Assembly: GCA_963758635.1 (NCBI GenBank)
Contig: CAVWWD010000005.1
Span: 160,001-224,000, forward strand
Reading direction: 5' to 3'
Source of the DNA: an uncultured Candidatus Rokubacteria bacterium
Lineage (GTDB): Bacteria; Methylomirabilota; Methylomirabilia; Rokubacteriales; CSP1-6
Length of the DNA stretch: 64,000 nucleotides
Numbering within the stretch: the first letter of the stretch is position 1; each line of letters begins with the position of its first letter. Positions 39,153 to 59,962 of the stretch are shown here, piece after piece. The position numbers were made by a program, and so were the translations under genes. The notes beneath the pieces are model-generated. The model saw only the letters and a program-made list of their open reading frames with translations, was not told where the DNA came from and did no database searches.

Positions 39153-39738
39153 ATGCCCGGACGACCCGCGGTGTTCATCGACCGTGACGGCTGCCTCACC
39201 GAGGAAGTGGGATACGTCAATCACGTCAGCCGGATCCGGCTCCTGCCGCGGAGCGCCGAGGCGGTCCGGAGGCTGAACGAGGCTGGCCTCCCGGCGGTGG
39301 TGGTGACGAACCAGGCAGGAATCGCCAAGTCGTACTTCAGCGAGGCCGTGCTCGAGGCGGTGAACGAGGAGGCTCGCCGGCAGCTCGGGAAGGGCCGCGC
39401 GCGGCTCGACGGGCTCTACGTGTGCACGCACCATCCCGACGAAGGCGAGCCGCCCTTCCGCGCCGACTGCGATTGCCGGAAGCCGCGGCCCGGCCTCTTG
39501 CTTCGCGCCGCGCGGGACCTCGATCTCGACCTGGGCGCGTCCGTGGTCATCGGAGACAAGATGTCGGAACGTCGCCACCGCGCGCGCGGTGGGCGCGGCG
39601 GGCGTCCTCGTGCTCACCGGGTACGGCCGCGGCGAGTGGGAGCACCGGCGCCACCTCTGGACCGACAAGCCGGACCACGTCGCCGACGATCTGCTCGAGG
39701 CCGTCGAGTGGGTCCTGGCCCGGCGGGCTCACCAATGA
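39153..39738 (+). CDS. gmhB: D,D-heptose 1,7-bisphosphate phosphatase GmhB (one +1 indel at ~39568)
   Basis: AVFIDRDG, VTNQAGI, CTHHP..CDCRKPRPG, IGDKMS(D)V, VLTGYG. Confidence 0.92.
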
Positions 39739-39822
39739 GCCCCGCGCATCAGACTAACGCCGAGCGGTGGGACTGTAGAGGCCCGTGGCGGTGACCGCAT
39801 TCTGCGAGGGTCACTAGACGCC

Positions 39823-57107: not shown

Positions 57108-58919
57108 ATGGCGCGCATCCGCCTGCTGCCCGACACGCTCGTGAACAAGATCGCCGCCGGCGAGGTGGTGGAGCGCCCGGCCTCCGCGGTGAAGGAGCTG
57201 GTCGAGAACGCGCTCGACGCCGAGGCCACGCGCGTCACCATCGACCTGCGTCATGCCGGCACGCAGCTCGTGCGCGTGGTCGACGACGGCGTCGGGATGA
57301 CCGCGGAGGAGATCGACCTCGCCCTCACGCGCCACGCCACGTCGAAGATCGCCAGCGAGGAGGACCTCGAGGCGGTGCGGACCCTCGGCTTCCGCGGCGA
57401 GGCGCTGCCCGCGATCTGCGCGGTGACCCGCTTCTCGCTCGCCTCGTGCCCGCGCGGAGCCACGTCGGGCACGCTCGTGCGCGGCGAGGGCGGCATCGTG
57501 CGCGACCGCCTGGAGGCGCCGGGGCGGACCGGGACCACGGTCGAGGTGGAGGACCTGTTCTTCAACACGCCGGCCCGCCTCAAGTTCCTGAAGAGCGGAC
57601 GCACCGAGCTGGCGCTGATCATGCGCCTGCTGCATGGCATCGCGCTCGCCCATCCCGAGGCGCACCTGGCCGTGACCCACGACGGGCGGGCCGTGCTCAC
57701 CGCGCCGCGAGCCGGCGACCTGCGCGACCGCGCGGGAGCGCTCTACGGGTTCGACCTCGCGGGCAAGCTCCTCGCCGTGGAGCGCCGCGGCGGCGTGCTC
57801 GCGGTGAGCGGGCTCGTGGGCCCGCCGCAGCACGCCCGCGGCAACCGGGACGAGATCACGCTCGTGGTCAACGGCCGGCCCGTCCGCGACACGCTCCTGA
57901 CCCAGACGATCATGGACGCGTACCGGCCGCTGCTCGCGCGCGACCAGTTCCCGGTGGCCGTGCTCCGCATCGACCTGCCCCCGCAGGAGGTCGACGTGAA
58001 CGTGCACCCGACCAAGGCCTGGGTGCGCTTCCGGTCGCCCCGCCTCGTCCAGGAGGCGCTCTTCCTGGCCGTGCAAGCCGCACTCCGCTCGAGCGACGTG
58101 GTGCAGCGCCAGGGCGGCCTCGGCGCTGCCGCGGCCGGCGGGGGCGCGGATCCGGGCCCCGCGGGACTGGCCGCCGAGCCCTACGCCGCCTACGCCGCCG
58201 ATCCCGGCGCGGGCGACCGTCCCCAGGGGCGGCTGTTCGACGACGGGCCGTCCGGGCGCGGGCCGGACCTCTTCGGCGCGGTGGTGGGCCAGCTCCAGGA
58301 CACGTTCATCGTCTCCTCCAGCGAGGAGGAGGTGTTCTTCGTGGACCAGCACGTGGCCCACGAGCGCGTGCTGTTCGAGCGCCTCCAGCAGGACACGCGG
58401 CAGGGCGGCGTCGCGTCGCAGGAGCTCCTGTTCCCGCAGGCCCTCGACCTGCCGCGCGGCCAGGCGAGCCTCCTCGGCGAGTGGCGCGAGACGCTCGGGT
58501 CGCTCGGCTTCGTCCTGGAAGGGTTCGGCGGCGACGCCATCCTGATCCGCGCGGTGCCCGTCGTGCTCGCCGCGCGCGAGCCGCGCCGGCTCATCGAGCG
58601 GCTCCTCGACGAGGTGAGCGCGCCGCTGGCGGGCGACGCCGCGCCGCTCCTCGACCGCGCGCTCGCCTTCGTCGCCTGCCGGGCCGCGATCAAGGCGCCC
58701 GCCCCGCTCGAGCGCGAGGAGATGCGCCGCCTGCTCGCCGACCTCTCCGCCACCACGACCCCCTACTTCTGCCCCCACGGCCGCCCCATCGTCTCCCGCC
58801 TCTCCCTCCGAGAGATCAAGCGGGAATTGAGAAGGACGTGGTGCAGTGCGCAGCGAGCGAGCCGAAGGCGAGCGGAGCGCATATGGAAAATGCAGTGGAA
58901 TCAACCACCAACCAGGTAG
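57108..58919 (+). CDS. mutL: DNA mismatch repair endonuclease MutL; as assembled it reads 25 codons into a downstream element
   Basis: KIAAGEVVERP, RHATSKI, GFRGEAL, DVNVHPTK, endonuclease motifs DQHVAHERVLFE, ACRAAIK, CPHGRP. The MutL-like part appears to end at ELRRTW (58841). Confidence 0.96.
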   Translation: MARIRLLPDTLVNKIAAGEVVERPASAVKELVENALDAEATRVTIDLRHAGTQLVRVVDDGVGMTAEEIDLALTRHATSKIASEEDLEAVRTLGFRGEALPAICAVTRFSLASCPRGATSGTLVRGEGGIVRDRLEAPGRTGTTVEVEDLFFNTPARLKFLKSGRTELALIMRLLHGIALAHPEAHLAVTHDGRAVLTAPRAGDLRDRAGALYGFDLAGKLLAVERRGGVLAVSGLVGPPQHARGNRDEITLVVNGRPVRDTLLTQTIMDAYRPLLARDQFPVAVLRIDLPPQEVDVNVHPTKAWVRFRSPRLVQEALFLAVQAALRSSDVVQRQGGLGAAAAGGGADPGPAGLAAEPYAAYAADPGAGDRPQGRLFDDGPSGRGPDLFGAVVGQLQDTFIVSSSEEEVFFVDQHVAHERVLFERLQQDTRQGGVASQELLFPQALDLPRGQASLLGEWRETLGSLGFVLEGFGGDAILIRAVPVVLAAREPRRLIERLLDEVSAPLAGDAAPLLDRALAFVACRAAIKAPAPLEREEMRRLLADLSATTTPYFCPHGRPIVSRLSLREIKRELRRTWCSAQRASRRRAERIWKMQWNQPPTR

Positions 58920-59002
58920 TACGGCACTGCGAAGCGAGCCAGGCGAGCGGAGCGCACATGGAAACGCTGTGGAACCAACCACCAACCAGGTAGTACGCAC
59001 TG
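58844..59002. mobile_element. Putative MITE-like element: 159 bp, 7-bp terminal inverted repeats, two tandem units
   Basis: Ends CAGTGCG (58844-58850) and CGCACTG (58996-59002); internal direct repeats 58856-58929 and 58933-59002; visibly lower GC than its flanks. The repeat is certain; mobility is inferred. Confidence 0.6.
58958..58993 (+). CDS. Candidate micro-ORF METLWNQPPTR (11 aa)
   Basis: GGAG 5 nt upstream of the ATG; TAG stop; a paralogous copy at 58883-58919 differs by one extra A. Confidence 0.35.
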   Translation: METLWNQPPTR

Positions 59003-59026
59003 AGAGCCGAACGTACTGAGAGCCAA

Positions 59027-59962
59027 ATGACCCGCCCACCCCTCCTCGCGATCGTCGGCCCCACCGCCACGGGCAAGACCGCGCTGGCCGTCCGCCTCGC
59101 CGCGCGCCTGCCGATCGAGGCGATCAACGCCGACTCGCGCCAGGTCTACCGCGGCATGGACGTCGGCACGGGCAAGCCCACGGCGGCGGAGCGGGCGGCC
59201 CTCCGGCACCACCTGATCGACATCGTCGATCCCGACGGGACGTTCAACGTGGCCCGCCTGCGCGCCGAGGCGCTGGCCGTCATCGCCGACATCCACGCGC
59301 GCGGCCGCCTGCCCGTGCTCGTCGGCGGCACCGGCCTCTACGTGCGCGCGCTCCTCAAGGGGCTCCAGCCGGCCCCCCCGGCCGACCGCGCCCTGCGCGC
59401 GGAGCTCGAGGCGCTGGCGCGCGAGCGGGGCGCCGCCGCGCTCCACGCGCGGCTGGCCGGGGTGGCGCCGGCGGCGGCGGCGCGCCTGCACCCGAACGAC
59501 CGCGTGCGGCTGATCCGCGCCATCGAGGTGGCGGGGGCGGACGCGGGCGAGCCGGCCCCGTCGTGGGCCGACGCCACGCCGCCCTTCCGGTCGCTGGTGG
59601 TCGGGCTCACGCTGCCGCGGCCCCTCCTCGCCCGGCGCATCGCCGATCGCGTGCGGGCCATGGTGGCCGGTGGCATGATGGAAGAAGTGCAACGGCTCCG
59701 CGCCGCCGGCCATCAACCGTCGCTGCCCGCCATGAGCGGCATCGGCTACCGCCAGTTCTCGTCCGTCCTGGACGGCACGATGACGGAGGCCGAGGCCGTC
59801 CGCCAGATGATCCGCGACACCACACGCTACGCGCGCCGGCAGATGACGTGGTTCGCGCGCGATCCCGAGATCCGCTGGATCAACGTCGAGGCCGCGGGAG
59901 GGATCGAGGGCGCGGCCCAACAGGTGCTCGAGATGGTCACCAAGGAGGGGCTCACCCAGTGA
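59027..59962 (+). CDS. miaA: tRNA dimethylallyltransferase MiaA
   Basis: GPTATGKT, NADSRQVYRGMDVGTGKP, VGGTGLY, HPND..R..RAIEV, YARRQMTWF. Confidence 0.97.
   Translation: MTRPPLLAIVGPTATGKTALAVRLAARLPIEAINADSRQVYRGMDVGTGKPTAAERAALRHHLIDIVDPDGTFNVARLRAEALAVIADIHARGRLPVLVGGTGLYVRALLKGLQPAPPADRALRAELEALARERGAAALHARLAGVAPAAAARLHPNDRVRLIRAIEVAGADAGEPAPSWADATPPFRSLVVGLTLPRPLLARRIADRVRAMVAGGMMEEVQRLRAAGHQPSLPAMSGIGYRQFSSVLDGTMTEAEAVRQMIRDTTRYARRQMTWFARDPEIRWINVEAAGGIEGAAQQVLEMVTKEGLTQ

Follow-up and report, generated by a model that had tools for sequence, protein, structure and literature searches.

A genome-wide, REP-like repeat of Rokubacteria with a predicted G·A-rich hairpin forms an array at the mutL/miaA junction

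The stretch of DNA analysed here, called the window, spans 64 kb (C5:160001-224000) of a Rokubacteria genome assembly of 6.17 Mb that has 71% GC and is 87% complete. It includes the genes mutS, mutL, miaA, and hflX in that order, as identified by Pfam. As assembled, mutL (57108..58919, plus strand, 603 aa; Pfam MutL_C, DNA_mis_repair, and HATPase) runs past its natural end, the Trp codon at 58839-58841, into a repeat-encoded tail of 25 residues, and is followed by miaA (59027..59962, plus strand, 311 aa; Pfam IPPT). GC content is 59% across 58844-59029 versus 74-75% in the flanks on either side. A preliminary description of the junction viewed it as a two-unit element, bounded by inverted repeats and inserted into the mutL stop codon. 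On inspection, the 7-bp inverted repeat is indeed there (CAGTGCG at 58844, CGCACTG at 58996-59002, 159 bp enclosed), as is an echo of the right junction at 58995 and 59011 (16 nt, 88%). Two direct units are likewise present, as imperfect copies, but the clean 77-bp period ascribed to them is not, equivalent landmarks lying 74, 75, 77, and 81 nt apart. Nor does the segment end at the inverted repeat: repeat-derived sequence extends to about 59029, taking in the miaA ATG, which it likely supplies. In relatives without inserts, the miaA start overlaps the mutL stop.

Read from left to right on the plus strand, the junction opens at 58839..58846 with the Trp codon and a damaged stop that doubles as the 5' tetranucleotide of the repeat family, here GCAG; a G stands at this position, four bases ahead of the hairpin, in 97 of 103 full copies, and the related loci L076 and L077 have Trp-TAG and then the repeat. 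Copy 1 (58847..58909; nhmmer 48.8 bits, with covariation in the family) consists of a hairpin (58847-58879), a conserved ATATGGAAATG-type linker, and a 3' module. Its hairpin has a GAA loop at 58864-58866, tandem G·A steps, and one additional 4-nt duplication. At 58915..58923 comes a GGTAG tag with what appears to be a 4-nt abortive copy start, a context that also opens the repeat in L084; the TAG within this tag (58917-58919) is the new mutL stop. Copy 2 (58924..58983; nhmmer 43.6 bits) has the 5' tetranucleotide GCAC and a loop short by 2 nt. The last part, 58989..59026, seems to hold a second GGTAG tag and two apex-deleted remnants (59001-59016 and 59017-59024), which lie below the profile threshold but resemble the 3' arm of family copies and the apex-deleted units of this genome's seven-unit array on C8 (C8:365757-365969). 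This part contains the right inverted repeat and the supposed right flank, whose 10-mer is not specific to the family (3 of its 46 genome matches lie near family loci). The left inverted repeat is the tag plus the opening bases of copy 1, while the right one, on inspection, appears to open a third, apex-deleted remnant. The feature first described is real but was wrongly delimited; what lies here is an array whose unit is an orphan, REP-like repeat with a G·A hairpin.

That the element might be multi-copy was confirmed. With BLASTN and an iterated nhmmer profile, a 57-nt unit was found 158 times in this genome, spread over 119 loci, and as members of this family the two units at mutL are similar to a degree far above chance. 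Ninety-one loci hold a single copy, 21 hold two, six hold three, and one holds seven; the mutL/miaA junction is the only family locus in the window. All copies at a locus share one orientation in 118 of the 119 cases. The sole mixed locus, C8:602368-602487, has two copies that form a long, near-perfect palindrome. A pattern for this genome's form of the repeat has matches in 13 of 251 genomes of the phylum, and a sister form of the hairpin occurs in 47 of 159 genomes of the taxonomic family. In three genera every genome has it (21, 8, and 4 genomes), and the reversed control pattern gave zero matches. Relatives conserve the hairpin and linker, while the 3' module varies. In a species-wide genome collection the exact pattern was found at 13 loci, with 12 records titled Rokubacteria or Methylomirabilota and one titled Nitrosocosmicus (L032). 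The latter shows the repeat in the gene context of two Rokubacteria records (L037 and L040) and is probably a misbinned contig. Searches of phage, viral, and plasmid collections returned, in turn, nothing, one partial copy, nine partial plasmid matches covering at most 42%, and nothing; phages and plasmids are practically free of the family. One viral contig (L114:2354-2382) carries a hairpin of similar build with the linker missing. The genome also contains at least four further abundant intergenic repeat families (18-mers, 34-79 copies), probably including a CTAG-targeting one, that have neither sequence nor position in common with the 57-nt family and hardly ever lie within 150 nt of it; one copy of such a family sits at about 39700-39800 of the window, on the minus strand. 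We found no published description of the 57-nt family in the literature available to us, and the REP family tables in the supplements to PMC3733652 and PMC6006769 could bear on its novelty. The 57-nt unit is a REP-like repeat family of Rokubacteria.

Relatives of mutL clarify what happened to its stop codon. Among 66 related loci, 58 (56 distinct junctions) end in Trp-stop 18 residues past the CPHGRP motif, with TAG in 32, TGA in 18, and TAA in 8; of the rest, two distant ones stop after 24 residues, five are without the motif, and one is truncated. The assembled MutL instead reaches 43 residues beyond CPHGRP, so the 25 added residues claimed for it are borne out, and such a tail is not natural to its orthologs. 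The stop is kept at all 58 orthologous ends, and in eight of them (seven TAG, one TGA) a family copy sits just behind it. The two most similar MutL C-terminal domains, from L076 (84%) and L077 (82%, with the subtype of copy 1), both have TAG and a filled site. In a tree of 59 MutL C-terminal regions, from which loci shorter than 150 residues or without the motif were excluded, the window clusters with L076, L077, and the empty site L078 (support 93/98, unstarred), so that two of its three nearest relatives carry the repeat behind the mutL stop. Filled and empty sisters alternate in this tree (L077/L078, L083/L086). Aligned to L077, the window has six additional bases, namely two within the TAG and the 4-nt duplication. 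The proposal that insertion split the stop is therefore probably wrong, since the stop is intact in all eight relatives with a repeat at the mutL end; because all eight repeats sit behind an intact stop, loss of the stop is likely secondary, a later change by a 2-nt insertion that is either real or an assembly error. The empty site that had been predicted has a repeat remnant as its right half and is seen at none of the 58 orthologous junctions, and no empty site was seen in the same species.

Whether the 2-nt insertion exists in the organism is a fairly even question, with a real change somewhat favored. The opposing reading, which we give a substantial though lesser chance, is that the 25-residue tail is a consensus error and that the gene ends Trp-stop with the array behind it; this is compatible with the explanation preferred below. 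A frameshift was found in about 10% of paralog-tested gene bins (161 of 1515, from 700 query proteins), and both reverse-transcriptase genes of the genome (L058-L061) are split, each over two frames; the universal stop at the 58 orthologous ends points the same way. However, small duplications are common at the 5' junctions of the family, 18 other predicted genes run into copies, and long-read errors do not usually take the form of a GC insertion where there is no homopolymer. As a locus the junction is minor, being a single array of a common repeat, and the MutL tail is secondary and possibly an artefact.

A different history, unlikely in our judgment, would have the whole block 58844-59029 inserted directly, in the manner of a MIRU, into the TGA of a GTGA overlap of mutL and miaA, giving mutL a new stop and miaA a new start. 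Excision of the block does restore a TGA stop together with an in-frame GTG start for miaA, the assembled junction follows the rule of G at -4, and a 4-nt overlap is seen at 13 loci from relatives, two of which repeat a junction of the same genome; L002, which has the closest MiaA, is among the 13. Yet the relatives with the overlap are only 56-72% identical in the MutL C-terminal domain, whereas the nearest ones, L076 and L077, have TAG and a repeat. We noted separately that in L003:1316-1500 and in L092 an array of the sister form is joined in frame to the 5' end of miaA; the gene upstream in L003 is not mutL, though its array matches that of L092, which follows mutL.

Genome-wide, the copies lie mostly between genes and tend to accompany gene ends. 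With gene positions taken from our own gene caller, which is imperfect on an assembly so rich in frameshifts, 101 of the 119 loci fall between genes. A same-strand stop is no more than 30 nt away at 37 loci and no more than 10 nt away at 22. TAG makes up 14 of these 22 adjacent stops versus 998 of 4617 elsewhere (p=3e-5). In gaps between co-oriented genes, 48 of 68 copies are on the sense strand (p=9e-4) and 20 are antisense; the skew of the genome is too weak for a bias in replication strand to be assessed. A copy is entered by the reading frames of 19 predicted genes, mutL among them, in some cases probably through errors, and a gene starts within a copy at five of the 119 loci. These counts agree with the view, put forward from the mutL array, of a non-autonomous, multi-copy element with a preference for gene ends that builds tandem arrays and is able to provide a new stop. 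At C5:85120-85229, two tandem copies lie in frame within a predicted gene that by eye resembles a membrane glycosyltransferase, adding about 40 residues. The last codons ahead of some copies (window 58818-58841; C3:102605-103768; C3:138246-138548) are rare for a 71% GC genome; the corresponding rise in third-position A/T beside copies is weak genome-wide (last five codons, 37/173, p=0.017). The family shows how repeats distort gene ends in annotations of Rokubacteria.

The first 33 nt of the repeat are predicted to form a symmetric hairpin around a three-base loop. Pairing was counted over the 98 distinct copies, among the 158, that hold the core pattern, which itself presets the inner five pairs. 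The pair -7/+9 is G-C in 57 copies and C-G in 36, and it is paired in 96 of 98, whereas 2000 shuffles gave 52 on average and never more than 66. At -8/+10, 72 copies have G-C and 23 have A·G; at -11/+13, 85 have C-G and 6 have T-A; and in the outer step, G·A is present in 95 copies and A·G in 85. These counts of covarying pairs reflect a few subtype founders rather than independent events. When the loop was left free, GNA triloops made up 91 of 106, with all four bases used as N, and GNNA loops five. Across the genome, a GNA loop on two tandem GA steps occurs at 74 sites, 72 of which belong to the family, while four other dinucleotide steps used as controls give 0, 0, 0, and 2 sites. Standard folding yields no signal for the hairpin (z 0.42 for DNA, -0.16 for RNA), as expected if G·A pairs carry the fold. 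The model predicts a fold of a single-stranded-DNA type, a GNA triloop on tandem G·A steps, that only the purine-rich strand can adopt. For a second hairpin in the 3' module, built on two TGGAA motifs, covariation was not clear. Tetranucleotides in that module, followed by TG, resemble the 5' tag set (GCAG 38, GAAG 10, GCCG 9, and GCCT 6 among 73 scored) and may mark a second cut site.

The same hairpin could instead be kept by selection as an mRNA element behind stops, controlling translation or stability rather than serving as a DNA substrate, which we regard as quite unlikely. Tandem G·A pairs form in RNA too. The sense-strand bias and the nearness to stops suit such a role, as does the finding, in the accessible part of PMC12306157, that a REP can reduce translation when it lies under 16 nt from a stop. 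However, the free N of the GNA triloops is a DNA signature: mini-hairpins of this kind, present at priming sites, have exceptional stability in DNA and much lower stability in RNA, according to the portion of PMC13037366 available. Moreover, 20 of the 68 copies are antisense, a search of Rfam over 58600-59300 gave no matches at E<=5, and filled and empty sites alternate between sisters.

A transposase with matching ends was sought, and no mobilizing enzyme came to light among the families and genomes searched (1-21 genomes per enzyme family, 47 loci checked for copies). Y1 transposases are absent from this 87%-complete genome. Genes for Y1 proteins occur in 12 of 21 genomes of one repeat-rich genus and in one of five others, and none of these 13 loci has flanking copies. 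In many genomes of one genus, a Y1 HUH protein is encoded once; it measures about 290-310 aa, is extended by a long stretch at its C terminus, and has no copies of the repeat nearby (L062, L064-L075). Loci for Y2, reverse transcriptase, DUF559, IS110, and TnpB, in five genomes each, lacked flanking copies as well, while a copy was found at three of 11 GIY-YIG loci, this genome's own two having none. The 220 predicted proteins encoded beside copies cluster, as judged by eye from sequence, as transporters and ordinary enzymes. An internal guide sequence that sets the target tetranucleotide, as for IS200/IS605 ends or PATEs, was also looked for in this genome, which has neither TnpB nor Y1; none of the 25 highest-ranked mutual-information pairs joined a tetranucleotide column to an internal one.

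An alternative does without a dedicated transposase, with the hairpin as a priming or protein-loading signal on single-stranded DNA that would be copied by host replication or repair machinery. In support, no transposase tracks the family among those searched, and its apex CCGAAGG is the mini-hairpin of the ssiA priming site used by the primase RepB', with related ones in phage G4 origins (as described in the accessible text of PMC13037366). We consider this distinctly improbable for a family that is practically absent from phages and plasmids.

The ends of the copies bear on how they arrive. Only the first G of the 5' tetranucleotide is conserved, the commonest among 103 copies being GCTT (25), GCAG (20), GCCT (11), GAAG (7), GATT (6), and GTAG (6), with GTGG at 0. 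The 7-bp inverted repeat was found at two of 104 loci, in a test anchored on the profile start that left the window's own locus unscored. In the flanks of 67 solo copies, inverted matches average 4.81 versus 4.68 for shuffled pairs, reached by 37 of 200 shuffles, and direct matches 4.84 versus 4.71, reached by 31 of 200; across the family, terminal inverted repeats and target-site duplications show no excess over shuffled pairs. 5'-partial copies lie upstream at 16 of 119 loci, some being of a subtype different from that of the full copy, which suggests repeated arrival at occupied sites. The model first proposed, in which a 159-bp MITE bounded by 7-bp terminal inverted repeats seeks out TGA stops and splits them, is accordingly largely refuted and very improbable: the inverted repeat exists and removal of the segment yields an in-frame TGA, but such a repeat is rare in the family, the flanks of solo copies show no excess of inverted or direct repeats, the left arm is an ordinary copy start, the right arm appears to open a remnant, and removal of the segment leaves 24 nt of repeat-like sequence absent from all relatives.

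We consider it probable, with real room for doubt, that the mutL/miaA junction holds a tandem cluster of a genome-wide 57-nt Rokubacteria repeat that in several lineages lies behind the mutL stop, that the repeat is a predicted G·A-rich hairpin of one DNA strand, and that it likely spreads in REP fashion through an enzyme acting on that strand. A nicking enzyme supplied in trans would recognize the folded, purine-rich strand and place copies directly 3' of a loose G-N-W-K tetranucleotide. The closest parallel is an HUH-type enzyme, since enzymes of this type recognize single strands in folded form, with an irregular stem preceded by a tetranucleotide (in the accessible parts of PMC8266576 and PMC6006769). 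The stop contexts GGTAG and TGA-TT would fit G-N-W-K, and copies at gene ends may have been spared by selection. Arrays and remnants would be built by slippage and by re-insertion into older copies. At mutL, the ancestor would have had Trp-TAG and then the repeat. Two nucleotides inserted later within the TAG would have let translation continue to the internal GGTAG of the array.

More broadly, the family may represent a class of transposase-orphan mobile DNAs with non-Watson-Crick single-strand folds, namely GNA triloops and tandem G·A. At gene ends, an enzyme or the priming machinery of the host would act on the non-template strand to move them, and they would rewrite protein termini again and again, here those of MutL and MiaA; this generalization is doubtful. 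The family would be a case from nature, with covariation, of a DNA-type fold otherwise familiar chiefly through oligonucleotide chemistry and priming sites. The repeat turns over at one site across lineages, and a 35-nt substrate makes the spread of REP-like repeats without a RAYT testable.

Several known repeat systems resemble the family in part. MITEs such as Correia and RUP are, like it, non-autonomous short repeats, but the 57-nt family has neither terminal inverted repeats nor target duplication. Mycobacterial MIRUs, which contain a small coupled ORF, have start codons as their insertion sites. Copies here instead lie near stops (37 of 119 loci within 30 nt, compared to five of 119 with starts inside), a third are antisense, and a structured hairpin is the defining feature. 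Shared with MIRUs are short repeats at operon junctions, direct tandem arrays, sense orientation, and the provision of stops and starts (in part from the accessible text of PMC12548453, other details being general background). CGTC-tagged REPs and the Rickettsia RPE, as far as the available text of PMC3733652 covers them, likewise have no dedicated transposase and enter coding regions in frame, as at C5:85120-85229; in contrast to them, the repeat described here has no CGTC tag and is not a Watson-Crick palindrome.

With the REP/BIME/REPIN and RAYT (TnpA-REP) system, as presented in the accessible parts of PMC6006769, PMC8266576, and PMC3733652, the family has in common short, high-copy, mostly intergenic, lineage-restricted repeats, a strand-specific irregular hairpin after a tetranucleotide, clustering, the supply of TAG stops, and occasional placement within genes. 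The GTAG termini of REPs often supply TAG stops and REPs inside genes are known, according to the same portion of PMC3733652. The differences are that the tag is loose here, with GTAG in six of 103 copies and GTGG in none rather than GT[AG]G, that clusters are direct, with one mixed locus of 119 rather than inverted doublets, and that the stem rests on tandem G·A steps and a GNA loop, with no copy-flanked RAYT found. Missing from the family are the GT[AG]G tag and the inverted doublets, two features of REPs, as well as both of the MITE features. It nevertheless works like a REP family, with many short, mainly intergenic copies and a predicted, strand-specific stem-loop.
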